This document shows positions 5,838 to 44,995 of a stretch of 64,000 nucleotides of DNA, in pieces. Positions within the stretch are counted from its first letter, which is position 1, and every line of letters begins with the position of its first letter. Below the pieces are notes generated by a model. The model saw nothing but the letters and a program-made list of their open reading frames with translations. It did not search any database and was not told the DNA's origin. The DNA comes from Candidatus Iainarchaeum sp. GTDB lineage: Archaea > Iainarchaeota > Iainarchaeia > Iainarchaeales > Iainarchaeaceae. Location of the stretch: the NCBI GenBank assembly GCA_002687735.1, contig NZBD01000015.1, forward strand, positions 54,499 through 118,498, in the 5' to 3' direction. Position numbers and translations under genes: made by a program.

Positions 5838-6815
5838 ATGGAAAAAATCCCTATTAAAGATGATTCAGAAAAACAGCTTTTTGATGCCTTAAAAGAAGCC
5901 TGTGATGGCATAGAGTTCAGTTCTTTTGAGGTAGGTGTTTCTAGTGAATCACTGGAAACTAAATATAAAATAAGACAAAAATCAATAGATTTTGTAAAAT
6001 CTACTTTTAAATCAAAACACGATTCTGAAAATTTTGAAAGCTATATTTTAGTTCATTTTGACAGGGGCTTTATTGAGGTCACTCCTACAAATGTTCTTGT
6101 TGAAGGTTTTTACAATAAATTTTCAAGAGATATTGCTCAGACATTTCATTATTGTTTTAAGTGCAGAGGCAGGGGCTGCAAAAAATGTAATAAAACAGGA
6201 AAACTTTCTGAAGAATCTGTTCAGGAACTAATAGAAAAAATAACTCTCCCCTTATTTGAATCTAAAGAGTCTAAGTTTCATGGCTGTGGAAGAGAAGACA
6301 AAGATGTTTTAATGTTAGGAAAAGGAAGGCTTTTTGTAATTGAATTAGTGGAACCAAAAAAGCGTTCAATTGATCTGAAGAACCTTGAAGAAGAGATCAA
6401 TTCAAAAAACAAGAATAAAATTTCTGTCAGAGGATTAAAGTTTGTTGAAAAGCAAAGAGTTGTCGAAATAAAAAATACTCCTTTCGAAAAAATTTATTCT
6501 GCAAAGTGTTTGTGTTCAGAAATTTCACAAAAAGAACTTGAAACCTTAATTAATAAAAAAATTAAAATTTTCCAGCGTACTCCTGTAAGGGTTGAAAAAA
6601 GAAGAGCGGATAAGAAAAGAGAAAAAACAGCAAAAATACTTAAAGCAAAATTAATTAACGAGAAAGAGTTTTCGTTAGAAATACTTTCATCACACGGCCT
6701 TTATATTAAAGAGTTTATTTCCGGGGACGAAAAAAGAACTGAACCGAGCATTTCTTCCATGCTCGGAAAAGAATGTGTTTGTAAAGAACTTGATGTACTG
6801 GAAATTGTGATTTAA
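5838..6815 (+). CDS. pus10: tRNA pseudouridine(54/55) synthase Pus10
   Basis: Zn-ribbon CFKCRGRGCKKC and catalytic HGCGREDKDVLMLGKGRLF motif. Confidence 0.8.
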   Translation: MEKIPIKDDSEKQLFDALKEACDGIEFSSFEVGVSSESLETKYKIRQKSIDFVKSTFKSKHDSENFESYILVHFDRGFIEVTPTNVLVEGFYNKFSRDIAQTFHYCFKCRGRGCKKCNKTGKLSEESVQELIEKITLPLFESKESKFHGCGREDKDVLMLGKGRLFVIELVEPKKRSIDLKNLEEEINSKNKNKISVRGLKFVEKQRVVEIKNTPFEKIYSAKCLCSEISQKELETLINKKIKIFQRTPVRVEKRRADKKREKTAKILKAKLINEKEFSLEILSSHGLYIKEFISGDEKRTEPSISSMLGKECVCKELDVLEIVI

Positions 6816-7759
6816 AGATCCACAATCCCCTGCTCCGTTACTCGGTAAATGGCTTCTCCGTCAGGCAAAGAAGGGCTGTCAACAAGCTTTGCAACTCTTT
6901 TATCTTCCTTACTTTTTCTTAAGTAAAGCCTTGTTTTGGAAGCGTGTGCAACAACGTTTCCTCCAACAGGTGCGGTTGGATCCCCGAACATAATATCCGG
7001 TCTTTCCATAACCTGATTGGTTACAAGTACGGCTATATTACTCATTTCTGCAAGTTTCTGCAAAGTTCTCATGTGCTTGTTTAGTTTTTGTTGTCTTTCG
7101 GCAAGAGTTCCACGTCCAACAAACTCCGATCTGAACTGAGCCATCAGAGAATCAACGATTAATAATTTCACATTTTTATTTTTCACCATATCTTCTGCGT
7201 TTTCCGCCAACAGCATTTGGTGATCTGAAGTATATGCTCTTGCCACAAAAATATTTTTGAGTGCTTCCTCCGGATCAAGACCTTGAGATTCTGCAATTGC
7301 AACAATCCTTTCAGGCCTGAAACTGTTTTCCGAATCAATGTAAAGGCATGATCCGTCCAGACCTCCTTTTTCTTTTGGAAGCTGTACAGTTACTGCTGTT
7401 TGAAAACACCATTGTGTTTTTCCTGAAGCAAACTTTCCGTAAATTTCTGTAATGCTTTGTGTTTCTATTCCTCCGCCTATAAGATTATCTACTTCTGCAC
7501 TTCCCATAGTTAATTTTCCCACGAGTTTTCTTTTTTCAGCTAAAGCAGATGCAGTTTCATAACCCATTTCCAAAGCTTCTCTTGCAGCTTTGATTGCTTT
7601 ATCAGATGTACCATCCCCCAATCCAGCTATTTCCTTCAATTCCTTTGGGGAAGCAACTGCAATATTTTCCAAAGTTTTGTAGCCTGCAGCAATTAGTTTT
7701 TCACTTGCCTGTGGTCCTACGCCAGGCAAATCTTCGATTTTCTTGATCTCTTTAGTCAT
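6812..7759 (-). CDS. radA: DNA repair and recombination protein RadA
   Basis: HhH N-terminus (LPGVGPQASEKL), Walker A GKFASGKTQ; GGAGG before ATG at 7759. Confidence 0.9.
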   Translation of the reverse strand: MTKEIKKIEDLPGVGPQASEKLIAAGYKTLENIAVASPKELKEIAGLGDGTSDKAIKAAREALEMGYETASALAEKRKLVGKLTMGSAEVDNLIGGGIETQSITEIYGKFASGKTQWCFQTAVTVQLPKEKGGLDGSCLYIDSENSFRPERIVAIAESQGLDPEEALKNIFVARAYTSDHQMLLAENAEDMVKNKNVKLLIVDSLMAQFRSEFVGRGTLAERQQKLNKHMRTLQKLAEMSNIAVLVTNQVMERPDIMFGDPTAPVGGNVVAHASKTRLYLRKSKEDKRVAKLVDSPSLPDGEAIYRVTEQGIVDL

Positions 7760-7796
7760 TTTTGTTTCCTCCTTAAAACCTGTACCTTTACGAGGA

Positions 7797-7821
7797 ACCT
7801 CCGTTGACCTGGAGTTCCACA
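7797..7821 (-). other. GC-rich stem-loop in radA 5' leader
   Basis: Minus strand GGAACTCCAGGTCAACGGAGGTTCC forms an imperfect ~8-bp stem between the TATA element and the SD. Confidence 0.3.
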
Positions 7822-7856
7822 TGAGCACGGTCTTTTCACTAAGTTAGTGTTTTTTG

Positions 7857-7893
7857 ATTTATAAATACTTTTAGGGTTGGTTGCCGGTGTCAG
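7857..7893 (-). promoter_or_regulatory. radA promoter: upstream box CTGACACCGGCAACCAACCC plus TATA (AGTATTTATAAATC)
   Basis: Box is 12 nt upstream of the TATA element; the core CACCGGCAACCAACCCTAAA is also present upstream of nurA. Confidence 0.55.
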
Positions 7894-21017: not shown

Positions 21018-21089
21018 TGCAGCCACGGGGATTCGAACCCCGGCCAAGAGCTTGGAAGGCTCTGATCCTAACCGCTAGACGATGGCTGC
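21018..21089 (-). tRNA. tRNA-Gly (anticodon UCC)
   Basis: 72-nt cloverleaf, acceptor GCAGCCA/TGGCTGC, T-arm GGTTCGAATCC, anticodon loop CUUCCAA. Confidence 0.85.
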
Positions 21090-21971
21090 TTTGACATATT
21101 CTTTATGCGTTGGCACTTTTCTAGTTTCTTTAAAAATCTGGTATTTTATTGTGTGCTTAATATTGCTGGGTTTAATTAGTTTAAAAAAGGTATCCAATTG
21201 TTTCTGATCGTAAATATAAACACTTTTTCCGGACAAACTGGCCTTAAATCCAAGTGAAATCAATGCTTCTTTAATTTGATTAAGAAAATTTGGCGAACAG
21301 CTGATATATTCAACCACTCCGCTATTTTCCCTTTTTCTGTGGAAACTTCCGTCTGTATCAAAAAGTCCTCTAAGATAAGCACAGAGAAGTTTTTCGTTCT
21401 TTAAGATTACTTTTGGAATAAATGTTTTATTTTTTCTATTCCCAATTACAAATTTACATTTTTCTGAAAGAAATAAGACAAGTTCTTTGGAGTAAATCAA
21501 ACACCGAATTGCTCCATTTTTTGTTACAAATGTTGGCTCTAAACCAAATAACTTTTCAAATTTTTTACCAATAACGTTTACAACATAATCATAATCTACT
21601 ATAGCACTACACGTAATTGAGACACGGTTATTTTTACCATAAATGTTACCGTCGCCTGCCATTGCCCCTAGAAATTCTGCTAATCCTTCGTTCAATTCAG
21701 GTTGAGATATTTCTTTTTTCTGAAAATAATTTGATTTTACTATATTTAAAGTATACAATTTTTTCAAATCAAAGTCTGTTTCTATACCAAGAAAAATTAA
21801 TTTGTGAAACCGAATTTTACTGGTTTCTCTTAAATAGTGAAAAATCATCCTTCTTTTTACTTTCAAAATCTTCGCAATTTCGTTCCAATTTAAACCTGAC
21901 TTATTTTTTATTTCTCTTAAAATACTAGCTTGTTTTCCAGAGCCAATATCTACAAATAGAGTTTTTTCCAC
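21075..21971 (-). CDS. free-standing double-motif LAGLIDADG homing endonuclease with N-terminal HTH
   Basis: LAEFLGAMAGDGNI and LRGLFDTDGSF motifs; the last 15 nt of the ORF are the first 15 nt of tRNA-Gly(UCC). Confidence 0.75.
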   Translation of the reverse strand: MEKTLFVDIGSGKQASILREIKNKSGLNWNEIAKILKVKRRMIFHYLRETSKIRFHKLIFLGIETDFDLKKLYTLNIVKSNYFQKKEISQPELNEGLAEFLGAMAGDGNIYGKNNRVSITCSAIVDYDYVVNVIGKKFEKLFGLEPTFVTKNGAIRCLIYSKELVLFLSEKCKFVIGNRKNKTFIPKVILKNEKLLCAYLRGLFDTDGSFHRKRENSGVVEYISCSPNFLNQIKEALISLGFKASLSGKSVYIYDQKQLDTFFKLIKPSNIKHTIKYQIFKETRKVPTHKEYVKAAIV

Positions 21972-21992: not shown

Positions 21993-22033
21993 GCTTTTAA
22001 ACACCCTGAAGCCCCTTGTTGCCGGTGCGAACC
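21993..22033 (-). promoter_or_regulatory. promoter of LAGLIDADG gene: box GGTTCGCACCGGCAAC plus TATA (TTTAAAAGCA)
   Basis: Shared GC-rich upstream box 16 nt 5' of the TATA element. Confidence 0.5.
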
Positions 22034-27870: not shown

Positions 27871-29202
27871 CTACAATGCTGTTGCCCTTACTTTATCGTT
27901 GCTTTCTACCTTTCCTTTCTTTGCACCGATAATAAATTTGGTTTCTGCTTTTTCTGCAGCAGTCATAAGTCTTTTGGTTATTACTCCGTCAAAGATTATT
28001 GCATTTACTTTTTTCTTGGTTTTTCCAAGTTCTGTTACAAGGTCTTTAACTTTAACCTCTTTGACCGTTACATTTTTTTCATCAAGCATTTTTGCTTTCA
28101 TTGAACCTTTTAGTTTATCAAGAATTGGTTTGAATGTTTCTGTTTCTTCTTTGGTTAAAACAGAAATAAACCTAGGTCTTCTTGTTTCCCGTGGTTCTCC
28201 TGAATCCATTGGTCTTCTTGCGGGTCTCCGGTCAGTTCTATCACTTCTTTCATTCCTGCCAAAGTTATTCCTAGGGCCTCTGCTCATAGGTCTCCGGTCA
28301 CCAGTCATTGGTCTTGCTCTTTGAGGTCTGTCCCTGTAATTGTTTTCTCGTGAATAACTGGTTTGTTGAGGTCTTTTTTCTCCAAGTTCTTCACTTGTTT
28401 CTACTTTCCTTTTTAATGATTGGAGAATTTCTTTTCTTGTTAGTTCCTCAACTTCTTTCCCATCAGGAGCTTTTGCAATGTAAGCTACCTTTGCAATTTG
28501 TGCAAGTTTTCTTGCGTTTAAGATTCCGCCCCTATCTCCGTCAATGAACACAGTTATTTCTTTGGTTTTACTTAGTTCACTTATTGTCGGAGGGATATTA
28601 GAACCATTCATTCCTATTACATTTTTTATCTGATTTCTAAGCATGTTAATGACATCTGCTCTTCCTTCAACAACTATAATATCTTTACTTGTGTCAATAT
28701 CCGGGCCTGCGGGTAATTTATCCGGACCGTAACTTGATATATCTGATGCCCTTACTTTTTCTCTTAATTCATCCCCAAGCATTTGAGTATCAGGTTTTGA
28801 CTGATCCATCATTTTTTTCAAAAGTTCCTGAGCTCTGTTTTTGATCTCATCTCTTTTGTTTGTTCTGGTATCTTCCATGCTGACTATTTCAAATGATGCC
28901 TCGCTTGGACCTACTTTATCAACACTTTCAATTCCTGCTGCCAATAAACTTGTTTCTGCCATATCCATTGAGGATGGAACCAGTACTTCTCCTTTAGTTC
29001 TTCCCATTGCAGTTTTGTGGTCAATTTCTATTCTTCCAAGCTTTCCGTTTTTCTGAAGCTCTTTAAGATCCATTTCGTCTCCGAGTAAACCTTCACTTTG
29101 TCCGAAAATTGCACCAATTATATCTGGTTTGTCAACTATTCCGTCAATTTCAAATTTTAATTTGATAACGTATTTAACTGTGTTTACGTATGTTTTTGCC
29201 AT
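27871..29202 (-). CDS. dnaG: archaeal DnaG primase (Toprim) with Arg-rich low-complexity linker
   Basis: Archaeal DnaG N-terminus (MAKTYVNTVKYVIKLKFEIDG...) and Toprim (VVEGRADV, DGDRGG); ~60-aa R/P-rich insert. Confidence 0.8.
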   Translation of the reverse strand: MAKTYVNTVKYVIKLKFEIDGIVDKPDIIGAIFGQSEGLLGDEMDLKELQKNGKLGRIEIDHKTAMGRTKGEVLVPSSMDMAETSLLAAGIESVDKVGPSEASFEIVSMEDTRTNKRDEIKNRAQELLKKMMDQSKPDTQMLGDELREKVRASDISSYGPDKLPAGPDIDTSKDIIVVEGRADVINMLRNQIKNVIGMNGSNIPPTISELSKTKEITVFIDGDRGGILNARKLAQIAKVAYIAKAPDGKEVEELTRKEILQSLKRKVETSEELGEKRPQQTSYSRENNYRDRPQRARPMTGDRRPMSRGPRNNFGRNERSDRTDRRPARRPMDSGEPRETRRPRFISVLTKEETETFKPILDKLKGSMKAKMLDEKNVTVKEVKVKDLVTELGKTKKKVNAIIFDGVITKRLMTAAEKAETKFIIGAKKGKVESNDKVRATAL

Positions 29203-29920: not shown

Positions 29921-30331
29921 TTGATGGCTCGTTACAACAAAGGCGCGAATGCTGAAAGGGAACTAATCAGAATGTTTTGGAAAGAAGGTTTTGCTGTTGC
30001 AAGAACCGCTGGTTCCGGAAAGAATGCTCTCCCAATGCCTGATTTAATTGCTTTGAATAAAAACCGTAAGATCGTGATTGAAGCTAAAGCCTGGCGTTCT
30101 AATTATTTGAACATTAATTTTGAACAAATGGAAGAACTCCTAAAATGGAAAGAAATTGCTAATGCTGAGGTTTTTGTTGCCTGGAAATACCCGAATAAGG
30201 GCTGGTTTTTCATTGATCCTAAGCATTTCAAAAAGAACAAGCATTATTCTCTTTCATTTCCCAAAGCTCAGAAAGTTGGTGTTGTTTTTGAGGTTTTTAT
30301 CGGAACGCAAAGTCAGTTAAGTCAGTCTTAA
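29921..30331 (+). CDS. hjc: Holliday junction resolvase Hjc
   Basis: Hjc-type PD-(D/E)xK: GANAERELI ... PDLIAL ... IVIEAKAW. Confidence 0.8.
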   Translation: MMARYNKGANAERELIRMFWKEGFAVARTAGSGKNALPMPDLIALNKNRKIVIEAKAWRSNYLNINFEQMEELLKWKEIANAEVFVAWKYPNKGWFFIDPKHFKKNKHYSLSFPKAQKVGVVFEVFIGTQSQLSQS

Positions 30332-35408: not shown

Positions 35409-35447
35409 TTTCGCACCGGCAACCAACCCTAAATTGATTTAAAAACC
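35409..35447 (+). promoter_or_regulatory. nurA operon promoter: box TTTCGCACCGGCAACCAACCC plus TATA (GATTTAAAAACC)
   Basis: The 20-nt string CACCGGCAACCAACCCTAAA is identical to the radA upstream region. Confidence 0.55.
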
Positions 35448-35466: not shown

Positions 35467-36552
35467 ATGAATATGTCCAAAGTGATTGATTCAGCCGTTG
35501 AAACAATCCATTCAGGAGAGCAAAGAAAAAAGCTGGTTACTGAAAAGCTTACTCCGTTAAAGAATAAAGAATTCTTTTCTCCAGAGCTCCCTGAAAAAGC
35601 ATTAGTGCTTCCGGTTCAAAAGTGGGTTCCTGATTGCACAATCGGAGGCGTTGATTCTGGTTTTGTTGCTAAAAGATTAGCTTCTGTTGATTTGGTTCTT
35701 ATTAGAGCAATGGGTGTTTGTTTTGATTACAAAAACGGAATTGTTGACAAAGCAAATTATTATCCGGGTTATTTTCAGTTTCCGGAACCGCACTTAAGCA
35801 ACAATGCTTTAGAAGAGGATGAAGCCGAACAATCAAAATCTTTAATGCGTTTGAAAGAAGAGGTTAAAGCTTCAAAAAAATTAATAGAAGAACATTCTCC
35901 AAAATATTTGTTTATTGATGGTTCTATTGTTCCTCAGTATCAGGACAAACCCAGAAAAGATTCTAAGTTAACTGATAATTATATCGATATTATTCAGGAG
36001 TTTGAATCGTTTTATGAATTAGCTGAAAAAAATAACTGCACTTTAATTTCCACCGTGGAAGATTCAAGAGGTTCCAGATTTAGGGGGATTATTCAGGATG
36101 AAATTCTTGCAAAAGAAAAAATAGTTGAAAAAGAAAAATTAGAAGGTTTGTTTGATTCTGCTTTTTTAGATTATTTTTTAACAAAAGGAGAACGCTCAAG
36201 CTGTTTCACTTACACTAAAAATATTAAGCAACATCCTGTGCTTTCCGATTTCAGTGAAAAATGGAGCAATCACATTTTCGGTTTGTACATCAAGCCCTCT
36301 AATTACGATAAACCATTGAGAGTTGAATTTATTTCTAAAGGAAATCTGAAAGAAAAAGCTGATGAAGTTGCAAAGGTTGCTTTTGCTTTAAGTTCTTTAC
36401 ACCGAGAATACGCTTATCCAAGCATCCTCATAGAGGCGGACATGCATGCTAAATTGAAGCAGGATGAGATCGAAATTGTTTATAACAAAATAATGGATAA
36501 ATTAGGAAACTCAATTAAATTGAAAATGCGGAGAGACAACAGGCCTTTTTAG
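35467..36552 (+). CDS. nurA: DNA double-strand-break repair nuclease NurA
   Basis: NurA motifs GGVDSG, YLFIDGS and C-terminal YPSILIEADMHAKL. Confidence 0.8.
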   Translation: MNMSKVIDSAVETIHSGEQRKKLVTEKLTPLKNKEFFSPELPEKALVLPVQKWVPDCTIGGVDSGFVAKRLASVDLVLIRAMGVCFDYKNGIVDKANYYPGYFQFPEPHLSNNALEEDEAEQSKSLMRLKEEVKASKKLIEEHSPKYLFIDGSIVPQYQDKPRKDSKLTDNYIDIIQEFESFYELAEKNNCTLISTVEDSRGSRFRGIIQDEILAKEKIVEKEKLEGLFDSAFLDYFLTKGERSSCFTYTKNIKQHPVLSDFSEKWSNHIFGLYIKPSNYDKPLRVEFISKGNLKEKADEVAKVAFALSSLHREYAYPSILIEADMHAKLKQDEIEIVYNKIMDKLGNSIKLKMRRDNRPF

Positions 36553-36574
36553 GTTTTTGCAGGATTTGTTATTT

Positions 36575-36691
36575 ATGCTGTGTCCAAAATGCGGTAATGA
36601 TTCTTTTGAAGATCTTCCTCTTGAAAAAGGAAAACAAAAGAAATGCAAAAAATGCGGTTTTGTAGGAAATCCAATGAGTGATATTACATGA
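36575..36691 (+). CDS. zinc-ribbon micro-protein (38 aa) within the nurA-herA operon
   Basis: CPKC...CKKC; ATGA overlap with the next ORF. Confidence 0.45.
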   Translation: MLCPKCGNDSFEDLPLEKGKQKKCKKCGFVGNPMSDIT

Positions 36692-36870
36692 CTCAGGAAG
36701 GAAAAAAGAAAGTAACTTTCTGTTCAAGCTGCGGTTCTGTAAATATAAAACCAAGTTATGCAATGGGAACAATAGACAACAGAGTTGAGTGTCTGGATTG
36801 CAAAACTTTAGAGTTTCCGATTGAGGCTGAAGAAAAATTCAGGCAGAAATTTTTAGAGGAAAAAAAATGA
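36688..36870 (+). CDS. zinc-ribbon protein (60 aa) within the nurA-herA operon
   Basis: CSSC...CLDC; 4-nt overlaps with both neighbours. Confidence 0.5.
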   Translation: MTQEGKKKVTFCSSCGSVNIKPSYAMGTIDNRVECLDCKTLEFPIEAEEKFRQKFLEEKK

Positions 36871-38408
36871 CTGAAAATGAAGAAATAGGAACTGTAATTT
36901 CTACTCCTGAAGGGCCTTCTCCTAGTTCTTTGGATTTTGTTGTTTACTCAGGAACTTTACACAGAGGAATGTTTATTGAGTTGGATTACAAAGAAGGAAC
37001 TCTTGTAGCGCTAGTCACGGATGTTGTTAAAACAAACCGTTATTTTGAAAGAGTTGAATCAGTTAAAGAATTTGAGAGTTCAGGCACAAAACTTTTCGAA
37101 CAGTTTCCAACTCATGAATGGGAATTCCTTTTAGCAAAAACAAAACCTTTAGGGATTTATAATAAAGGAATGATTAAGCGTTCTTCTTTTCCTCCTTCTC
37201 CGGGAACTAAAGTAAGGGTTGCTACAAAAGAAATTCTCGAAAAGTTTTTAGGTTTAGATTTAGAAAAAGGTTTGATGTTAGGAAATATAGAACATCACGA
37301 TGTTTCAGTAAAATTAAACCTGTCAAGGCTTTTTCAAAAACATTTAGCTATTTTAGCAATGAGCGGAGCTGGAAAAAGTTATGCAATTTCTGTTTTACTT
37401 GAGGAACTTTTGGAAAGAAAAAAAGAGGATGGAAGACTTGCTGTTCTTCTTATGGATGCTCATGGAGAGTACAGGAATTTTGCTGAACCAGTTAAAGGTT
37501 CAGAGTTTAAGGATTTTTCTTCCAAAACAAAGTTTGTAAAAGCATCTGAAATAAGCATTGGGGTTTCTAAACTTTCGGCAGGATCTATTGCGGCAATGGT
37601 TCCTTCAATGTCAGGACCGCAAAAAAGAGATCTTGATAAAGTTTTTATGAGATTAAGAAGTGAAATGAAAGATGGGTTGGGTCCTTTTGATTTTAATGCT
37701 ATAAAATCTGAAATAATGAAAGATTCTGAGATTAAAGAAGCAACAAAACAAGCCTTAATAGGTTGGATTGTTTCCTTAGAACAGTTGAACCTTTTTGGAA
37801 AAACAGATAACCCAAGCATTAATGATTTGGTCAGGCCAGGGGAATTAACAATTATTGATTTGAGTGATGTTGTTGATCTGAAGAAGAAACAAATTATTGT
37901 TTCTTATTTTGCAAGAAAACTTTTCAATGAAAGGCGTAACAAACGCATTTCTCCTTTCACAATGGTTGTGGAAGAAGCGCATCAATTCTGTCCTGAGGGG
38001 GCTTCCAGAGAAGCTGCAATCAGCAGAAGCATTATAGAAACAATTGCAAGAGAAGGAAGAAAGTTTGGAGCTTCAATTTGTTTAATTTCCCAAAGGCCAA
38101 TTAATCTTTCAACAACTGCTTTGTCTCAATGCAACACCCACTTAATTCTAAGAGTAACTAATCCTTATGATCTGAAACATATTGGGGAAACAAGTGAAGG
38201 TCTTGATTCAAGAAGCACTGATATGATAACCTCTTTGAGAACCGGGGAAGCATTAATGGTTGGGGAAGCAGTCAATTATCCTGTTTTTTTTAAGGTTAGA
38301 AAAAGACTTTCTCAGCCTTCTATGCACGAGAAAACTCTGGAAGAGGCTTCTGTTGAGTTTGAGGAAGTAAAGGAAGCTTCTCAAAAGGACATTGAGGATT
38401 TACTCTGA
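36867..38408 (+). CDS. herA: HerA helicase (FtsK-HerA superfamily ATPase)
   Basis: N-terminal HAS barrel, Walker A AILAMSGAGKS, Walker B LLMDAHGE, arginine-finger region. Confidence 0.85.
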   Translation: MTENEEIGTVISTPEGPSPSSLDFVVYSGTLHRGMFIELDYKEGTLVALVTDVVKTNRYFERVESVKEFESSGTKLFEQFPTHEWEFLLAKTKPLGIYNKGMIKRSSFPPSPGTKVRVATKEILEKFLGLDLEKGLMLGNIEHHDVSVKLNLSRLFQKHLAILAMSGAGKSYAISVLLEELLERKKEDGRLAVLLMDAHGEYRNFAEPVKGSEFKDFSSKTKFVKASEISIGVSKLSAGSIAAMVPSMSGPQKRDLDKVFMRLRSEMKDGLGPFDFNAIKSEIMKDSEIKEATKQALIGWIVSLEQLNLFGKTDNPSINDLVRPGELTIIDLSDVVDLKKKQIIVSYFARKLFNERRNKRISPFTMVVEEAHQFCPEGASREAAISRSIIETIAREGRKFGASICLISQRPINLSTTALSQCNTHLILRVTNPYDLKHIGETSEGLDSRSTDMITSLRTGEALMVGEAVNYPVFFKVRKRLSQPSMHEKTLEEASVEFEEVKEASQKDIEDLL

Positions 38409-38457
38409 TTCTTTTTAAAAAGACAATTATTATTAACTAATTCTTCGTTTTTTTTGC

Positions 38458-39597
38458 ATGCCTTTAGAATCAATTCTTTTATTTATTGTAGGGACTATTT
38501 TACTGATTAAATCTGCTGATTTTTTGGTGGATGCTGCCGCAAAAATAGCAAAACTTTTAGGAGTAAGCGATTTAGTAATCGGTCTTACAATTGTTTCTAT
38601 TGGAACTTCACTTCCTGAAATTGCTTCGGCTATTTTTGCTGCTTTTTCCGGAGAACCAAGCCTTGCTATTGGAACTGTAATAGGTTCCAACATTTCTAAC
38701 ATTGCACTTATTCTTGGAATAACAATTTTTATTGCAGGAACAATTAAGGTTGATAAGAAAGCTCTTGAAAAAGATCTTTTCATAATGCTCATGGTTTCTG
38801 TTTTATTCTTTTATTTTTCTTTAGATGGTTTAATTTCTTCATTGGAAGGAGCAATCCTAGTTGTTTTGTTTGTTCTTTATATGATGTTCCTGTTTGGTTT
38901 TATGAAACGCTTTGAAAAAATATTCTCATATGATCGTTTCTTGAAACAATTTTTTGGAACTGAGAAGTTTTCTGTTTTTAATCTTAAAACTTATTTCAAA
39001 ATAATGCAGGCCGGAATTGATCCTTCCACTTATAGAAGACTTCTTGGTTTTGATGGAAAGCAGTTCACGGAAAAAATCGGAACCAGGATTGATAAAGGAG
39101 AAAAAGCCGAGGCAAAAAAACTTTTCGGTAAAGAATTCTTTTCATCACTTATTAATCAATTGATTATTTTAGTTATAAGTGCTTTGGGAGTTGTTTATGG
39201 TGCTCAGATACTGATTGAGGGAGCAATAGGTTTAGCTTCTTTTTTTGATATTCCGAGTTCTGTAATAGGTTTGTTTTTAGTCGCTATTGGAACTTCACTT
39301 CCTGAATTAGGTGTGACAATTTCCTCAGCCAGAAAAGGCTACTTTGATATTTTAATAGGGAATATTATCGGTTCCAACATTGCAAATATACTCTTGGTTA
39401 TTGGCACCACTTCTGTTATTTCAGCTTTGAGTTTTTCTTTTGCAGAAATTTTTATGCCTATGTTTTTTATGCTTACAATTTCCTTAGTTCTTGGGTTTTC
39501 AATCCACAGGAATTATGACATCAATAAAGCAGAAGCTCTTCTGTTTATGGTCTTATATGCTGCTTTTGCATATATTACTTATATTAGCATTATGTAG
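38458..39597 (+). CDS. CaCA-family Na+/Ca2+ exchanger (YrbG-like)
   Basis: Two alpha-repeat motifs (GTSLPE..., GSNI.NI) separated by a cytoplasmic loop. Confidence 0.75.
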   Translation: MPLESILLFIVGTILLIKSADFLVDAAAKIAKLLGVSDLVIGLTIVSIGTSLPEIASAIFAAFSGEPSLAIGTVIGSNISNIALILGITIFIAGTIKVDKKALEKDLFIMLMVSVLFFYFSLDGLISSLEGAILVVLFVLYMMFLFGFMKRFEKIFSYDRFLKQFFGTEKFSVFNLKTYFKIMQAGIDPSTYRRLLGFDGKQFTEKIGTRIDKGEKAEAKKLFGKEFFSSLINQLIILVISALGVVYGAQILIEGAIGLASFFDIPSSVIGLFLVAIGTSLPELGVTISSARKGYFDILIGNIIGSNIANILLVIGTTSVISALSFSFAEIFMPMFFMLTISLVLGFSIHRNYDINKAEALLFMVLYAAFAYITYISIM

Positions 39598-39610
39598 TTC
39601 GCACCGGCAA

Positions 39611-39727
39611 TGCACGCCTCAGAAAAACCAAGGTTTTTCCGAGACCTTTTCCTTTTTTGAATCTTTAATTTATAACCCATTGTGAGCAATGGGTTGGACG
39701 TTAGCGTACCACACAGCCGCAACTGTG
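39611..39727 (-). mobile_element. hairpin-headed mini-element copy D (117 bp), flanked by 12-bp duplication TCGCACCGGCAA (39599-39610 / 39728-39739)
   Basis: Minus strand begins CACAGTTGCGGCTGTG directly after the duplication and carries further hairpins (AACCCATTG/CAATGGGTT; AAAAACC/GGTTTTT). It is inserted into a copy of the promoter box. Confidence 0.55.
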
Positions 39728-39768
39728 TCGCACCGGCAACACACCCCTTGAAAATGCTTTTTAAAGCA
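39728..39768 (+). promoter_or_regulatory. promoter of 498-aa gene: box GTCGCACCGGCAAC plus TATA (GCTTTTTAAAGCAG)
   Basis: Box-TATA-ATG arrangement as at radA and nurA. Confidence 0.5.
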
Positions 39769-39785
39769 GAATCAAAAGTTTTAGT

Positions 39786-41282
39786 ATGCTCCATAATACG
39801 CGATTATTCCTGAGCAGGGTTAACTATGTTCCTGAAAAAAGACAGATCACTGTAGAGTTCTCAAAGAAAAACCAGAAGGCTTCAAAAAAATATTCATTTT
39901 TTCCAAAAATGCATCTTTCACTGAAAAAAATTCCCAAAGAACATTTAATCGAGGCTTTAGGAGATTATGATATAAGAAAACTAAAAATGGATTTTAAGGA
40001 AAACACAGTTACTATTTTTGCAGCAACATTTTCAGACCTGAAAAAAGTTAATAATCTTCTGAATAATTTTTTTAATTTCCGTTCAAATTTAATAGAGCCA
40101 GAAAGACAGTTTTTGTTAGAAAAAAATTGGAGTTATTTTGATTCTTTCGATTTTTCAGATTCAGAGCCTGAACAAATTTACACAACTGAATTTCCTGATG
40201 CTTCAATGGATTTTCTTTCAGATTCTTTCAAAGAAACTATAGCGTCCTTATTGCTGAATAATAAATCTCTTGCCAAAGAAACAATTAACAAAATTGTTTT
40301 TTCCAAGTTGTTGAGAATTCCTTTAATAGGAAGAGAAGAAGATAAATCTCTGGAAGAAATTTTTATTGAAAACATTTTTTTCCTTAGTGGAAAACCAATT
40401 TCTATCGGAAAGTCTGGAAACAAATCTTATTTCAGATCAATTCATAAAAAATCAGTTATTGATTTTTCAAAAATGGTTTCAGTAATGGCTTCAAAGCCTT
40501 TTAATAATCTTGGTTTTGAAACCATTAATTGCAGTTGTTGTAAACCTTGGGATAAGGAAGCAAAAAACATTCTGCCTTCTTCTTTGGTTAAGGTTAATTT
40601 TCTGAGAGAAGCTTTTTACTTTGACTCTGTTTCAAGTAACTGGGCTGAAGCGTATCATTTTTCTAATGAGGAAATGCAGACGCGTGAAAAAAGAAAAAAA
40701 GAATATTTTTTGGATTTTTATCCTTCAGGCCCGTTTTCAAGAAACGCTTCTGCAAACATCATTTTGGCTGATGCATTAAAACTTGAACAGAAAGGTTTGG
40801 TTAGAATAGTTTCTCAGGAAAATCCTTCCTGGTTTTGTCTGAAAAATGAAAGTGCTTTTTCTTTGGAAGTTAATCGTTTGTATGAAGCTTTGCTTACTCT
40901 GGATTCGGTTGTTGAGAATGAGAGTAGTTCTGTTGTTGCTTCTGATGGTTTATTTTTCTCTCAATCCCTTGAATCTAGTCCTGGCTATCATTACAGAAAA
41001 ATTTTGAATAAAACAATCTCAAGACTTTTGGCTTCCTTCCCTAGATTACTTACAAATTCCTCTGGAAGGTTTTTCGATAAGAATTTTGCAATTGCTTTGG
41101 AAGCTATTAATAGTCTTATTTTGAAGGATTTTGAGGAAATTGCCCAGAATTCTAAAACAAGGGTTACTTTTAAGGATTCTAGTGCTTTGGTTGATTCTTC
41201 TTCTTTTATGTCAGCTTCTAAAGAGTTCAGAGAGCTTTATAGAGTTGATAAACGCTTGTTGAGCTTCTCTAAGAGCTTTTGA
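39786..41282 (+). CDS. hypothetical 498-aa protein (shares the promoter box with radA and nurA)
   Basis: No recognisable catalytic motif; CSCC cluster; no Mre11 phosphoesterase motifs. Confidence 0.4.
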   Translation: MLHNTRLFLSRVNYVPEKRQITVEFSKKNQKASKKYSFFPKMHLSLKKIPKEHLIEALGDYDIRKLKMDFKENTVTIFAATFSDLKKVNNLLNNFFNFRSNLIEPERQFLLEKNWSYFDSFDFSDSEPEQIYTTEFPDASMDFLSDSFKETIASLLLNNKSLAKETINKIVFSKLLRIPLIGREEDKSLEEIFIENIFFLSGKPISIGKSGNKSYFRSIHKKSVIDFSKMVSVMASKPFNNLGFETINCSCCKPWDKEAKNILPSSLVKVNFLREAFYFDSVSSNWAEAYHFSNEEMQTREKRKKEYFLDFYPSGPFSRNASANIILADALKLEQKGLVRIVSQENPSWFCLKNESAFSLEVNRLYEALLTLDSVVENESSSVVASDGLFFSQSLESSPGYHYRKILNKTISRLLASFPRLLTNSSGRFFDKNFAIALEAINSLILKDFEEIAQNSKTRVTFKDSSALVDSSSFMSASKEFRELYRVDKRLLSFSKSF

Positions 41283-41345
41283 ATCAGGTTTTTAATCCTT
41301 TGCGTGGAGAAAATAGTAGTAAATCCTGATTTTAAGTGATTTTAT

Positions 41346-41552
41346 ATGAGTGATTTGACAAGATTTGAGGTAACTCGTCTTATAAGTGCTAGGGCATTAC
41401 AGCTTTCGCTAGGTGCTCCCGGAATGATCAAGGCGTCAAAAGAAGCCAGCATGATTGATATTGCTAAGGAAGAATTTGATAAGAAAGTTATTCCTATTTC
41501 AGTTTTAAGAGAATTTCCTGATGGAAGTATTGAAAAAATTGAGGCGAATTAG
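41346..41552 (+). CDS. rpoK: DNA-directed RNA polymerase subunit K (Rpb6 homolog)
   Basis: TRFEVTRLISARALQLSLGAP motif. Confidence 0.8.
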   Translation: MSDLTRFEVTRLISARALQLSLGAPGMIKASKEASMIDIAKEEFDKKVIPISVLREFPDGSIEKIEAN

Positions 41553-41553
41553 A

Positions 41554-41745
41554 TTGGGTAAAGCAGTTCCTCAGAACATTAAAAGTAAGGCAAATATACT
41601 TTTACAAACTTATCCTAACGATATGCCAAGTGATTTTGATTCTATTAAAAAATTTGTTGATTCTTTTGAAATGCCAATGAGTAAATCACAGAGAAATCTT
41701 GTTGCTGGTTTTTTAACCAGAAAAAAGTCTCAATCAAAAACCTAG
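41554..41745 (+). CDS. rps17e: 30S ribosomal protein S17e (TTG start)
   Basis: NIKSKANILLQTYPNDMPSDFD...SKSQRNLVAGFLTR fits the S17e pattern; ATG 41521 would overlap rpoK. Confidence 0.6.
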   Translation: MGKAVPQNIKSKANILLQTYPNDMPSDFDSIKKFVDSFEMPMSKSQRNLVAGFLTRKKSQSKT

Positions 41746-43785
41746 TGCTTTTGTAGGTGCATCTTTTTCTTTTTCTCTTTCTAAAGAGTATAATTTTCCT
41801 GATGCTGCATTTTCCATTTCCTTGTCATGAGTGATAATAAAAATTTGTTCAATCAGTTCCGGCAAATGATTCCTCATTGTATCGCTTAATTCTTTAACTG
41901 CATTTATATCTAAATTATGTGTTGGTTCATCCAGAATAATCCACCCAAGATTTTGAGTTAATACAAGTGAGATTGCAATTCTTAGTGTTATTGCTGCGGA
42001 ACTTCTTTCTCCTCCTGAAAGTATTCCCTCTACTCTTGCCCATTGTTCATTTCTTTGTTTAACCATAACCTCATAGCTTCCGTCTTCCACAATTATTTTT
42101 ACATTCAAAAAATCTTTGTAAGGATAAATTCTCGGCCAAATTTCTTCCATTGCCTGATTAACTGTTTCTACCATCATGTTTCTTAGTTCTCCCTGCGTGG
42201 ATTTTAATGCGGAAGTAAAGATTGCCAGTTTTTCCGTTGTTCTTTCGTTTTCTTTAATCTGAATTCCAAGTGCCTTAATCTGATGTTCTGTTTCCTTTAT
42301 TCTTTTCACACTTTCAGTAAGTTCTTTCAATAATTCTTTTCCGCTTGAAATCTCCGTTCTTAATTCAGCATTCTTTTCTTTTAACCCTAAAAACTCTTTT
42401 TCGTGCTTCTCGTGTTCTTTTTCATCAAATCCTGTCTTTTTCATCATTTCCCTTACTTTTTCCATTTCTTTCTCAAGGTCGTTTTTTTGTTTTTCCTTTT
42501 CACTTAATTCTGAAGCTATCTCTTTTAACCTTTCAAGTTCATTAATTTCCTTTTCAATAACCTCGTTTTTTTCTCCTATTTTTCCAACTTCTTCATCTCG
42601 TTTCTCTAAATCTTTTGTTTCTTTTTCTAAATGTAAACTGAGTTCTTTTGTTTTCTCGTGAATTTTTTCTTCTTCCTCTTTAAGCTCTTCCTCAAGCTTT
42701 TTCTTATCATGTTCACTTAAGGGCCTTTTGCAAATTGGACAATCAGAATCAAGTTTTTGTGCATCAGAAACACTTTTTGAATTGGAATTAAGCAAGTTAT
42801 TTTGAACAGCTATTTCTTCTTTAATTTTAGAAACCTTTCCTTCAATTATCCCGATTTCCTTTTCTATTTTTTCAGTTTCTTTCTCACCCCTATCCAGAAT
42901 TTTCTTATTTTCCTTTATTTTCCCTTCAAGTTCTTCAGGTTTTGTTCCTTTCAATTTTTCTCTGTTCGTTTTCAGCTGCTCCGTTAGAGCTTCTGTTTTT
43001 GCTTTGCTTTGAATCTCAAGTTCTTTCAGGAATTTGTTTTCCTTTTCTTTTTCCTCCAGTTGCTTAAGTATTTTTTCTTTTTCATTGATGTGTTTTTCCA
43101 GTTCAGAATTTTCCTTTTCCTTATCATTCAAGGTTTTTTCCTTTTCACTAATCCGTTTTTCATAATTTTCAAGTTCATTCGGATCGCTTTTGTTTTTTTG
43201 TTCATGTAAAAACTTTTTCCTATCATCAATCGTGCGTTTGAGTCTGTTTGTAAGTGTAACAGAATTAGTTCTTACTTTTTCATATTTATCTAATCCTAAT
43301 AATTCATCAAATTTTTCTTTTCTTTGTGCAGGACTCAATTTCAAAAAAAAGTCAATCTGATTCTGTTCCGAATAAATTGCTCTGCTGAATAGTTCGTAAG
43401 AAACTTCTAGTATTTCCTCGATTTTTTTTGTTGTTTCAGTTGTTTTTGGCCCTGCTATTATTTTTCCGGCTTCTCTTAAAGTTCCTTCATTAATTCCCTT
43501 TCTTTTTACAATTCTCTCAACTGAATATTCTTTATCATTATAATCAAACCCAAGTGTTATTTTTGCTGTTTCCTGTTTGTTTGGTTTTGCCATTATGGTT
43601 TCTTCAAGATTAACCTTGCGCGTAGCTAATGTAGGAAACGTGCCATAAAGCGCAAAAGAAATAGCATCCATTATAGAGCTCTTTCCGGAACCCATTTTTC
43701 CCACAATTACATTAGTGCCTTTGGAAAAATCAAGTTCTGTATTATAATGGGTTTTCCAATTTTCCAGTTTAATGGTTTTTATCAT
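41734..43785 (-). CDS. rad50: DNA double-strand-break repair ATPase Rad50
   Basis: Walker A GKMGSGKSS, coiled-coil arm with zinc hook CPICKRP, signature SGGERS, D-loop LDEPT. Confidence 0.85.
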   Translation of the reverse strand: MIKTIKLENWKTHYNTELDFSKGTNVIVGKMGSGKSSIMDAISFALYGTFPTLATRKVNLEETIMAKPNKQETAKITLGFDYNDKEYSVERIVKRKGINEGTLREAGKIIAGPKTTETTKKIEEILEVSYELFSRAIYSEQNQIDFFLKLSPAQRKEKFDELLGLDKYEKVRTNSVTLTNRLKRTIDDRKKFLHEQKNKSDPNELENYEKRISEKEKTLNDKEKENSELEKHINEKEKILKQLEEKEKENKFLKELEIQSKAKTEALTEQLKTNREKLKGTKPEELEGKIKENKKILDRGEKETEKIEKEIGIIEGKVSKIKEEIAVQNNLLNSNSKSVSDAQKLDSDCPICKRPLSEHDKKKLEEELKEEEEKIHEKTKELSLHLEKETKDLEKRDEEVGKIGEKNEVIEKEINELERLKEIASELSEKEKQKNDLEKEMEKVREMMKKTGFDEKEHEKHEKEFLGLKEKNAELRTEISSGKELLKELTESVKRIKETEHQIKALGIQIKENERTTEKLAIFTSALKSTQGELRNMMVETVNQAMEEIWPRIYPYKDFLNVKIIVEDGSYEVMVKQRNEQWARVEGILSGGERSSAAITLRIAISLVLTQNLGWIILDEPTHNLDINAVKELSDTMRNHLPELIEQIFIITHDKEMENAASGKLYSLEREKEKDAPTKALGF

Positions 43786-43821: not shown

Positions 43822-44085
43822 TTATAAAAGAGTCATTCCGATTTGTTCTACTTCTTCAATGGTAGCCATTTCTTCTAGTTCTTTAGTGGCTTTTTCCATT
43901 GCATTTTCTTCTTTCTCGTTCACAATTACGCCTACTTTAAGAATAACAATTCCAAACCCAATTGGATCATCTTTTATGTCTTTAACTTCTCCAGATTTAA
44001 GGGTCTGAATTTCTTTTTTTGTTTCCTCTAATTTTTCCATGTCCTTAGGAGTAACTTTGTATATGATAAAACTCTTGTCAGGCAT
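43822..44085 (-). CDS. ef1b: translation elongation factor aEF-1 beta
   Basis: 88 aa with GFGIVILKV core, acidic. Confidence 0.7.
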   Translation of the reverse strand: MPDKSFIIYKVTPKDMEKLEETKKEIQTLKSGEVKDIKDDPIGFGIVILKVGVIVNEKEENAMEKATKELEEMATIEEVEQIGMTLL

Positions 44086-44094
44086 TAGTATCAC

Positions 44095-44247
44095 TTATGG
44101 TCCGGTGAATTCGCATTCAGGACATTTATAATCAAGGCTTCTTGTACGGGCTTCCATGCTTCTGGTTAGTCTTTCCCCGCAATTTGGACACTTGAATTCA
44201 ACAAAATCGTCAGTAACGAGCTTGTTTGTTGTTACGCATGTTTTCAT
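44095..44247 (-). CDS. Zn-ribbon RNA-binding protein (COG2888-like), 50 aa
   Basis: CPNCG...CPEC; conserved partner of aEF-1beta; absent from the ORF track (<60 aa). Confidence 0.6.
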   Translation of the reverse strand: MKTCVTTNKLVTDDFVEFKCPNCGERLTRSMEARTRSLDYKCPECEFTGP

Positions 44248-44294
44248 ACTACTATTCTCTAATTAGTTAGCTTTAAAAAGGTTGATTTAGGGTT

Positions 44295-44330
44295 TTCGCA
44301 TCGGCAATGATGTCTCGAAAGTATTTAAAG
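44295..44330 (+). promoter_or_regulatory. promoter of DUF5678-like/protease pair: box TTCGCATCGGCAAT (variant) plus TATA (TATTTAAAG)
   Basis: Same box-spacer-TATA geometry; two mismatches to the core. Confidence 0.4.
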
Positions 44331-44369
44331 CAAATATATTTATACATTCATAGAGGTATAATTGTGAGT

Positions 44370-44579
44370 ATGACGATTAATGATTCTTTCAAAACATACG
44401 AATTCTATGCAAATGCTGATTTATCTAAATATGCGGGTCAATGGGTCGCAATAGTGGATAATAAGGTTGTGGCACATGGAAAGAATGTCAAGAAAATATT
44501 GAAAGAAGCAGAGAAAGAAGCCCCTAAAGCCATTCCGTTTATAGCAAAAGTGCCTCTTAGAGATATTCTTCTCTGGTAA
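44370..44579 (+). CDS. DUF5678-like small protein (tentative family assignment)
   Basis: YAGQWVAIVDNKVVAHG pattern (from memory, unchecked); start reassigned downstream of the TATA element, so the track's 44307 start is a spurious extension. Confidence 0.5.
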   Translation: MTINDSFKTYEFYANADLSKYAGQWVAIVDNKVVAHGKNVKKILKEAEKEAPKAIPFIAKVPLRDILLW

Positions 44580-44995
44580 TGTGCATGTCTTTTAACTTTA
44601 AATATAGAAAAGAAAAATTTGAAGGAAAAACCAGATATTTTCCAAAAGTTGTTATAAGTCTTTACAATAAAGGCATCAAATTCGATTACCCTGCATTAAT
44701 TGATTCTGGAGCAACAGATATTTTTATTCCAAAACAGATTGCTGAAGCTCTTGATCTTGATTTTAAGGAAGAAGATATTGCCAGCAGTTGGAATGGTGAT
44801 TTTAAGGTTTGGAGTTCTAATATAGGAGTTATTTTGGGAAAAGGAAGTCAGACTTTTAGAAGAGTTTTACCGTGCCTTATTCCAGATAGTGAAAATCCCA
44901 ATCAGGAAGTAATTTTAGGAAGAGTATTATTCAAATTCTTTGAGGTTACATTCAACGAACAAAAAAGAATCACAAAGCTTAAAAAAATACAGTAA
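44579..44995 (+). CDS. retropepsin-like (clan AA) aspartic protease
   Basis: ALIDSGAT active-site motif; TAATG overlap with the upstream gene. Confidence 0.55.
   Translation: MCMSFNFKYRKEKFEGKTRYFPKVVISLYNKGIKFDYPALIDSGATDIFIPKQIAEALDLDFKEEDIASSWNGDFKVWSSNIGVILGKGSQTFRRVLPCLIPDSENPNQEVILGRVLFKFFEVTFNEQKRITKLKKIQ

Follow-up and report, generated by a model that had tools for sequence, protein, structure and literature searches.

The stretch of DNA analysed here, 64,000 nucleotides (nt) of contig NZBD01000015.1 and referred to as the window, comes from the genome of a marine member of the Iainarchaeota (Diapherotrites), which belong to the DPANN archaea, and the region is core genome of this archaeon. 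It encodes NurA and HerA, whose genes are separated by two zinc-ribbon micro-ORFs (open reading frames), and, on the opposite strand, Rad50, whose gene is flanked by those for ribosomal protein S17e and EF-1beta. These gene calls had been made by an earlier, sequence-only reading of the window and are correct as judged from Pfam matches and the ORFs. Between herA and rad50 lies a gene for a protein of 498 residues (39786-41282, plus strand), referred to below as polBL. The sequence-only reading placed it there, but overlooked a gene for a Na+/Ca2+ exchanger family protein on the herA side and rpoK on the rps17e side. It regarded the 498-residue protein as a possible unrecognised partner of the double-strand break (DSB) repair machinery, with Mre11 missing from the neighbourhood. 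Its observation is partly confirmed and its interpretation partly supported: polBL appears to be a degenerate homologue of the family-B DNA polymerases (PolBs), and its gene has a promoter box in common with nurA and radA.

Fold and family of the polBL protein

No curated family covers polBL. Searches gave no match in Pfam (E ≤ 0.1, DNA_pol_B included), NCBIfam (E ≤ 0.01), PHROG or PADLOC, its deposit (MAG18350.1) is titled "hypothetical protein [Candidatus Diapherotrites archaeon]", and the 63 homologues found in a collection of 5.8 billion proteins are all unnamed or "hypothetical". A TARA Oceans scaffold and assembly GCA_002499505.1 carry the identical sequence. When a profile built from 49 members of the family was compared with the PDB, it matched PolBs only (5mdn, Pol alpha and Pol II), at weak significance (E 0.09-1.3), and the alignments span the stretch DFS...N.GfET, which falls on motif A, as well as the fingers through the motif C hairpin. 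The AlphaFold2 model of polBL (predicted local distance difference test score, pLDDT, 88.8; predicted template modelling score, pTM, 0.88) is a confident one, and its top 50 Foldseek matches in the PDB were all PolBs, with E values of about 1e-7, a probability of 1.0 and template modelling (TM) scores, normalised to the query, of 0.35-0.49. These matches include P. calidifontis PolB, E. coli Pol II, Thermococcales PolB and Pol epsilon, and the matches in a viral structure library were likewise PolBs. In a pairwise alignment with hhalign, polBL residues 170-275 were placed on residues 331-444 of KOD polymerase, with IDFS..NNLGFETINCSCC paired with the KOD motif A region. Judged from its modelled structure, polBL is a PolB homologue that consists of an N-terminal domain, a palm and fingers. 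The N-terminal domain is assigned from the global Foldseek match together with an inspection of the sequence; an hhalign comparison of the first 165 residues with KOD polymerase yielded a spurious alignment only. The profile and structure searches that the sequence-only reading had proposed for this protein were blank with respect to curated families and successful with respect to structure. With the PDB profile, Foldseek and hhalign all indicating a PolB fold, the idea that it is an Mre11 stand-in of unknown fold is not supported.

Canonical PolBs, such as the KOD and Pfu polymerases, P. calidifontis PolB and E. coli Pol II, have the same overall fold as polBL, including the motif A strand with its Asp, the fingers helices and the hairpin at the position of motif C. 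With about 775 residues, however, they are much longer than polBL, which is devoid of the thumb, of the motif B and motif C residues and of about 145-160 N-terminal residues, and which differs further by a palm insert of about 100 residues with four invariant cysteines and by its invisibility to Pfam and NCBIfam. The loss at the N-terminus follows from the alignment of residue 170 with KOD residue 331, and the absence of the thumb from the alignment of residue 488 of 498 with residue 581 of 783 in 5mdn, the polBL chain ending about 10 residues later. The missing N-terminal residues presumably represent the exonuclease domain, of which a YFD motif (D119) is the only remnant in polBL. The sequence EPERQFL (residues 104-110) may be the counterpart of the IPFAKRYLID helix that precedes Exo I, although hhalign did not confirm this anchor.

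The catalytic motifs are similarly eroded. D226 aligns with the motif A Asp of KOD polymerase and is kept in 92% of the family members, but the remainder of motif A is degenerate (DFS.. compared with DxxSLYPS). At the aligned fingers positions (409-424) there is no conserved Lys, Asn or Tyr of motif B (Kx3NSxYG). The motif C hairpin is present in the AlphaFold2 model (strands 460-463 and 466-469), but a conserved acidic residue of motif C (YGDTDS) is absent from it, with Asp and Glu together reaching at most 16% at the hairpin turn. On these sequence features polBL would probably be unable to polymerise. The protein has 16 invariant residues, in a family in which pairwise identities go down to about 24%. 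The best-conserved stretch comprises residues 226-351 and includes the invariant N241, C249, C251, C252, R300, G315, P316, W349 and C351, as well as position 329, which is an Asp or Glu in every sequence.

The four cysteines, C249, C251, C252 and C351, are invariant in 49 of 49 sequences and flank the palm insert. The triplet, which the sequence-only reading had correctly noted as a C-x-CC cluster in a protein without Mre11 motifs, starts 23 residues after D226, and the fourth cysteine stands some 100 residues further on, immediately ahead of the fingers. The four are likely to form a Cys4 metal site that would stabilise the protein by stapling the insert. The CysX cysteines of yeast Pol2, the catalytic subunit of Pol epsilon, presumably lie at about the same distance past the motif A Asp. 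A separate model of the insert (residues 222-362; pLDDT 91.7) gave weak yet consistent matches to GINS B-domains (5ghr_B, 2e9x_B and 9moj; probability up to 0.98, E ≥ 0.19) and none to Pol epsilon in a structure search, so that homology of the insert to the Pol epsilon P-domain, which had been considered, is not supported. CysX coordinates an Fe-S cluster that acts as a "staple" at the P-domain's base and is reported to be absent from all other known polymerases (PMC6582351, PMC7544198). The likeness is one of topology: in both proteins an arrangement of three plus one cysteines after motif A flanks a palm insert (C249/C251/C252 and C351 in polBL, C665/C668/C677 and C763 in Pol2; PMC6582351). 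In contrast, the polBL insert has no P-domain match, its best matches being the GINS B-domains, and the metal in polBL is putative.

The family is widespread within its phylum. A profile search of 1.84 billion cluster representatives found 242 polBL clusters at 50% identity, and among the best 150 of these the lengths are about 400-550 residues, fragments apart, with no full-length PolB. A pattern scan with one genome per species located the gene in 68 species-level genomes, and the records that carry a title are nearly all from Iainarchaeota/Diapherotrites. A few contigs with polBL are filed under bacterial or thaumarchaeal bins, as Falkowbacteria, Patescibacteria and Thaumarchaeota (L028, L070 and P0043 in our numbering of related loci, which is used below). 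These labels look like binning errors, because L028 and L070 share the archaeal neighbours herA, rpoK and rad50. polBL is thus an unannotated family of proteins of about 500 residues that is confined to the Iainarchaeota.

A promoter box shared with nurA and radA

A box promoter consists of CGCACCGGCAA, a spacer of 15-18 nt and a TATA element. The sequence TCGCACCGGCAA is present in exactly four copies in the window, and allowing up to two mismatches gives eight matches compared with 1.2 expected. Five box copies are intergenic and located 15-18 nt upstream of a TATA element, ahead of radA, a gene for a helix-turn-helix (HTH) and LAGLIDADG protein, nurA, polBL, and a DUF5678 gene followed by a protease gene. 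The nurA box (TCGCACCGGCAA, 35411-35422, plus strand) is found 15 nt upstream of the TATA element TTTAAAAA and 45 nt upstream of the ATG. The proximal polBL box (39728-39739, plus strand) has TTTTTAAA 18 nt downstream of it and the ATG 47 nt downstream; a distal copy (39599-39610, plus strand) lies 129 nt further upstream and has no TATA element at the usual distance. Tandem boxes also occur in L013 and L009. On the minus strand, the variant TGACACCGGCAA and its TATA element (7881-7892) lie upstream of radA (6812-7759, minus strand; 315 residues, PF08423 Rad51, E 4e-94, with the start set from orthologues of 315 residues), and an exact box with a TATA element (22019-22030) lies upstream of the HTH-LAGLIDADG gene (21075-21971, minus strand; 298 residues). 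A variant with one mismatch, TCGCATCGGCAA, again with a TATA element (44296-44307, plus strand), precedes the DUF5678 gene (44364-44579, plus strand) and, behind it, a gene for a retropepsin-like aspartyl protease (44579-44995, plus strand).

Throughout the phylum, the box is found in the same position in the upstream regions of nurA and polBL, and it precedes the polBL orthologue in 25 loci. Its sequence is specific to the lineage, with CACCGGCAA, CACCGGAAATCCACTCTC, CACTGGAAATCTAC, GACCGGCA and GCGGCGG-type forms. Within a genome, a word of at least 9 nt is common to the nurA and polBL promoters in 48% of loci, compared with 5% of control promoter pairs, and these words are up to 20 nt long. 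Among 51 sites at which box, TATA element and ORF are combined (in the window together with some 1.2 Mb from related loci), 25 drive polBL and 17 drive nurA. The radA promoter follows the same rule: its variant is the nurA variant of that genome in four of four other Iainarchaeota genomes, with polBL compared in three of the four. The box that the sequence-only reading had reported as common to the 498-residue gene, nurA and radA is therefore real and co-varies across other Iainarchaeota genomes. As polBL has this specific box in common with nurA and radA, it may reasonably be called an unrecognised partner of the machinery as far as co-regulation goes, but not in the sense of an Mre11 stand-in.

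No box was found in the promoter of the aS21-EF-1beta-rad50 genes in any locus read, the rpoK promoter is box-less, and rps17e has no box. Since the nurA string and polBL each have a box promoter of their own, polBL is most likely transcribed alone and rad50 stands outside the regulon. rad50, rpoK and rps17e are neighbours of polBL through conserved synteny and not as regulon members.

The 298-residue HTH-LAGLIDADG protein is a candidate regulator of the box regulon that, by its own box, would be self-regulated. Its homologues in L039 and L041 are also box-bearing. The protein has an N-terminal HTH-like segment and a LAGLIDADG_3 domain, and homologues of it are encoded in L041 (38% identity), L043, L039, L010, L034, L021, L023 and L030, several of them just past aS21. 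The DUF5678 gene is box-bearing in L013 and L014 too, and a small ORF with a protease-like gene is located near nurA in the rearranged locus L012. The retropepsin-like protease recalls the protease domain of the eukaryotic DNA-damage-inducible Ddi1.

Several further features of these promoters were observed. The spacer between the two polBL boxes (39611-39727, plus strand) folds far better than shuffled sequences (-32.8 kcal/mol, z = -3.8). One of its hairpins has a U-run behind it and resembles a terminator for the exchanger gene, and there is a second hairpin (AACCCAUUG...CAAUGGGUU). An Rfam scan of the window found tRNAs only. The radA leader is long (6812-7891 in the window; L081-L084), with the TATA element about 100 nt upstream of the start of the 315-residue protein in the window and in four genomes. 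A gene for an RPA-like OB-fold protein adjoins radA in three of four related loci and is box-less in both upstream regions read. Genes for the Holliday-junction resolvase Hjc (29921-30331, plus strand) and a Toprim (DnaG-like) protein (27871-29202, minus strand) lie 5-8 kb upstream of nurA and are both box-less. The rpoK (41283-41345) and aS21 (44248-44290) promoters have a common TTTTTAA...GAGAA(A)ATAGTAGT layout, unlike the box promoters, which may be the housekeeping promoter type of the lineage.

The nurA-herA string, rad50 and their surroundings

Behind a single box promoter, nurA, znr1, znr2 and herA form one co-directional string on the plus strand. NurA (35467-36552, 361 residues; PF09376, E 2.2e-13) is the nuclease of the HerA-NurA end-resection pair, and HerA (36867-38408, 513 residues) is the hexameric translocase/helicase (PF01935 DUF87, E 3e-31; NCBIfam HerA, E 1e-46, under the equivalog cut-off). 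A NurA-domain nuclease and a DUF87 ATPase are thus jointly encoded, and this pairing is maintained across the phylum in the related loci, with nurA orthologues of 34-94% identity. The micro-genes between them encode ZnR1 (36575-36691, 38 residues, with a CPxCG...CxxCG zinc ribbon, from the ORF listing) and ZnR2 (36688-36870, 60 residues, with a CxxC...CxxC pattern). According to the sequence-only reading, all three junctions are ATGA-type overlaps of 4 nt. True overlaps of this type are found between znr1 and znr2 and between znr2 and herA, but not between nurA and znr1, because nurA stops 22 nt short of the znr1 ATG (or 4 nt from an alternative TTG).

ZnR1 is uncalled in public annotation, and its exact sequence is absent from the protein collection. 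In 17 species-level loci, homologues with the pattern CPxCG...CxxCG[YF]xG are encoded between the nurA and herA genes, immediately ahead of herA or znr2-herA and in some of these loci with the same 4-nt overlap. ZnR2 homologues are found in 6-7 loci of a closer clade, at 49-83% identity (L013, L014, L016, L018, L019 and L021). The micro-ORFs, whose conservation in relatives had been named beforehand as a check, are therefore conserved. In L041 there are two tandem zinc-ribbon copies that are alike, and ZnR2 therefore looks like a tandem duplicate of ZnR1. The best reading is that the zinc-ribbon micro-protein is a conserved component of the HerA operon, and ZnR1 might be an accessory subunit of HerA or a factor made alongside it.

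The spacer between nurA and herA is an insertion hot spot within the co-directional string. In L005-L008 and L010 it holds genes that vary with the lineage, namely MazE/PIN toxin-antitoxin pairs, a DSP-phosphatase-like gene of 156 residues and DUF3850. In many relatives (L005-L008, L012, L013, L016, L022 and others) herA is split by an intein that includes a LAGLIDADG homing endonuclease, and the products have about 1140 residues; herA of the window is uninterrupted by an intein.

The rad50 gene (41734-43785, minus strand; 683 residues) encodes an SMC/ABC ATPase and is the third gene after those for aS21, an HVO_2753-type zinc-ribbon protein (44095-44247, minus strand; NCBIfam; box-less promoter), and EF-1beta (43822-44094, minus strand; PF00736), which lies upstream of rad50 on the same strand. 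In the PDB it is matched best by the Rad50 proteins of M. jannaschii and P. furiosus (E 2e-28 to about 1e-28). The best NCBIfam match, archaeal Rad50 PRK03918 (E 2e-60), is under the equivalog cut-off, which is in keeping with a short coiled coil. The protein has a Walker A motif, a signature motif, a Walker B motif and a central CPIC zinc hook. All 45 full-length orthologues in the related loci have Walker A, the signature motif and a CPxC-type hook exactly at mid-length (CATC or CLTC in three of them), and the rad50 gene is genuine.

In the window there is no Mre11, as the sequence-only reading had stated: GNH[DE] occurs in no frame, and a hidden Markov model (HMM) built from 12 archaeal Mre11 sequences is blank at E ≤ 10 for ORFs of at least 60 residues. 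The 12 sequences were retrieved with P. furiosus Mre11 as query, in a search that was dominated by Thermococcales and uninformative on Iainarchaeota. The motif scan and the HMM likewise found no Mre11 in the window plus 1.26 Mb of DNA in 80 related loci, including the 10 kb around rad50 in about 45 species; a canonical arrangement with mre11 just outside the window, which had been named as the finding that would overturn the sequence-only reading, is thus not seen within 10 kb of rad50 in related loci. polBL itself has no DxH, GDxxD/H or GNHD/E motif and does not adopt the fold of a calcineurin-like phosphoesterase. Metallophos_2 proteins of 213-215 residues near TYW3 (L009, 20205-20852; L011, 15006-15647) were considered as Mre11 and rejected, as they give no match to the Mre11 HMM and reach about half the size of the retrieved archaeal Mre11 sequences (about 400-480 residues). 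Such a gene is absent at that position in the window.

The four-gene operon herA-mre11-rad50-nurA, against which the neighbourhood had been called atypical, is typical of thermophilic archaea only (PMC7776575). Its absence here is therefore unsurprising in itself. As in the HerA-NurA systems of thermophiles, nurA and herA are co-directional behind one promoter, and rad50 encodes a genuine zinc hook. Unlike in the thermophile operon, one or two zinc-ribbon micro-genes are located between nurA and herA, rad50 follows genes of translation and has a different promoter, and mre11 is not adjacent.

In most loci with enough flanking sequence, the order is nurA, znr (in some), herA, a variable insert, polBL, rpoK and rps17e, after which rad50, EF-1beta and aS21 come on the other strand. 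In the window, rpoK (41346-41552, plus strand; PF01192) encodes an Rpb6-like subunit of RNA polymerase and has a promoter of its own, and rps17e (41554-41745, plus strand; PF00833) starts at 41554 and not at 41521. The distance between herA and polBL is about 80-110 nt in many species. The exchanger gene that separates them in the window (38458-39597, plus strand; PF01699, E 1.4e-61), which encodes a membrane protein and has its own TATA element, is a lineage-specific insertion outside the system; relatives have a VTT-domain protein, a NUDIX protein or nothing at this position. The same synteny covers PTH2, the CCA-adding enzyme, a T2SSE ATPase and TYW3. As many unrelated neighbours are equally syntenic, adjacency is weak evidence of function, and the closeness of rad50, which the sequence-only reading had noted, reflects a phylum-wide synteny that includes rpoK, rps17e, EF-1beta, aS21, the CCA-adding enzyme and the T2SSE ATPase. 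In a rearranged clade (L012, L047, L048, L052, L054 and L057-L059), polBL is no longer beside rad50 (for example in L012, L048 and L054). A gene for a 742-residue protein that is convergent with polBL in L012 was considered as rad50 and rejected, since it encodes a pilin-like surface protein. An anti-phage defence island was likewise rejected: the block belongs to the core and keeps its synteny throughout the phylum instead of being variable, and PADLOC gave only generic HerA- and SMC-like matches and none for NurA, the zinc ribbons or polBL.

Possible functions of polBL

The fold, the missing segments and motifs, the distribution and the co-varying box, all of them observed, are best accounted for if polBL is a non-catalytic PolB derivative that serves as a DNA- or protein-binding module with a structural metal site and shares its switch with RadA and NurA-ZnR-HerA. 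This explanation is favoured with moderate confidence. polBL would have been retained as a DNA-binding or protein-binding scaffold, stabilised by the putative Cys4 metal site, and one regulator would switch it on together with RadA and NurA-HerA through the box. It would then act in recombinational repair or replication restart, possibly with a physical partner. Several points weigh against this explanation. The gene order is conserved for many unrelated neighbours, the N-terminal domain is unalignable by hhalign, and the charged residues D226, D119, E195, E245, R300 and D329 are conserved without being explained by it. The regulon marked by the box could be one for the cell cycle or replication instead of one for damage. 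Furthermore, the call of inactivity is made from sequence, and PolB2 was likewise predicted to be dead and proved active (PMC11791011, PMC8764526).

The example of PolB2 (Dpo2) bears on the idea that polBL is active and acts in damage tolerance, as an unconventional polymerase or nucleotidyl transferase whose active site was rebuilt. Once regarded as an "inactivated PolB", PolB2 is now known as a damage-inducible translesion extender (PMC11791011, PMC8764526). Like polBL it is degenerate as a PolB, shows decay of the exonuclease part and has a link to a damage or recombination response, which in polBL takes the form of co-regulation with radA. In polBL the motif A Asp is mostly kept, and R300, H291 and, with an acidic residue throughout, D329 are invariant. 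PolB2 retains, however, one motif C Asp, the second of that motif, and a structure fairly close to that of a canonical PolB (PMC11791011), and it is encoded in an operon with iRadA and PPB2, whereas polBL is without a motif C carboxylate, motif B and thumb and has no match to Pfam DNA_pol_B. In the loci read, no gene for iRadA, PPB2 or any other RadA-like or small helical partner of the kind found in the PolB2 mutasome adjoins polBL. An active enzyme is accordingly regarded as quite unlikely. It is possible, if rather unlikely, that polBL is instead a replisome scaffold, with the box defining a replication or cell-cycle regulon that includes recombination genes. The model for this is the C-terminal inactivated PolB module of eukaryotic Pol epsilon, which binds the CMG helicase. 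That module, which is without catalytic residues and yet an essential scaffold, provides a precedent (PMC7544198, PMC2669801), and polBL would similarly be a polymerase-derived module that was retained without catalytic residues; its gene belongs to the core, phylum-wide set. In contrast to that module, polBL is stand-alone and archaeal and shows no specific affinity to it beyond the general PolB fold in Foldseek. The GINS B-domains, which are the only consistent structural matches of the palm insert, point to the replisome as well, but these matches are insignificant. No box promoter that was found drives a recognised replication gene, Cdc6/Orc1 of L010 not being among them, and the identified regulon members are radA and nurA-herA.

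The remaining explanations centre on Mre11 or deny a function altogether. A remodelled form of DSB processing is conceivable in which a dead PolB derivative with a metal cluster acts as a sensor of DNA ends or primer-templates on HerA-NurA (with ZnR) and/or RadA and partly replaces Mre11, one regulator acting via CACCGGCAA; this is unlikely. That polBL simply replaces Mre11 as a partner of Rad50 and/or HerA-NurA, as the sequence-only reading had it, is very improbable. The lack of Mre11 in the window and near rad50 in the related loci, together with a polBL gene that, for most of the phylum, stands between herA and rad50, would be consistent with it. However, the PolB fold has no nuclease motifs and is not that of a calcineurin-like phosphoesterase, rad50 is outside the box regulon and, in one clade, apart from polBL, and mre11 may sit elsewhere in the genome, as the searches covered the window and the related loci. 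It is scarcely tenable, finally, that polBL is a decaying polymerase remnant without functional meaning in a neighbourhood of frozen synteny. The equal synteny of many unrelated flanking genes agrees with this notion, but polBL has stayed full length in no fewer than 68 species and in 242 clusters, with its 16 invariant residues, and its box co-varies with the nurA and radA boxes.

Among the papers searched, none described the polBL family, Iainarchaeota repair genes or the regulation of DNA repair in DPANN archaea. Iainarchaeota/Diapherotrites are unmentioned in a 2014 review of archaeal polymerases, as well as in the main text and two supplementary files of a 2020 survey of PolBs. polBL adds an unannotated, phylum-wide family to the family-B polymerase superfamily, and none of the PolBs compared is so reduced, with no thumb, no catalytic motifs and an exonuclease domain that is apparently gone. 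Polymerase-derived pseudo-enzymes are rare and informative, as illustrated by the inactive half of Pol epsilon, which proved essential, and by PolB2, which was misjudged for a decade. The putative Cys4 site of polBL, moreover, has a position like that of the Fe-S "staple", which according to ter Beek et al. (PMC6582351) is lacking in every known polymerase but Pol epsilon. A conserved, unannotated zinc-ribbon micro-protein is flagged in the HerA operon, and, although the organisms are uncultured, polBL and its candidate partner proteins should be producible in E. coli. For the Iainarchaeota themselves, the promoter box ties polBL to radA and nurA-herA and thereby defines a recombination regulon in DPANN archaea, in which polBL would probably serve as a non-catalytic polymerase derivative.

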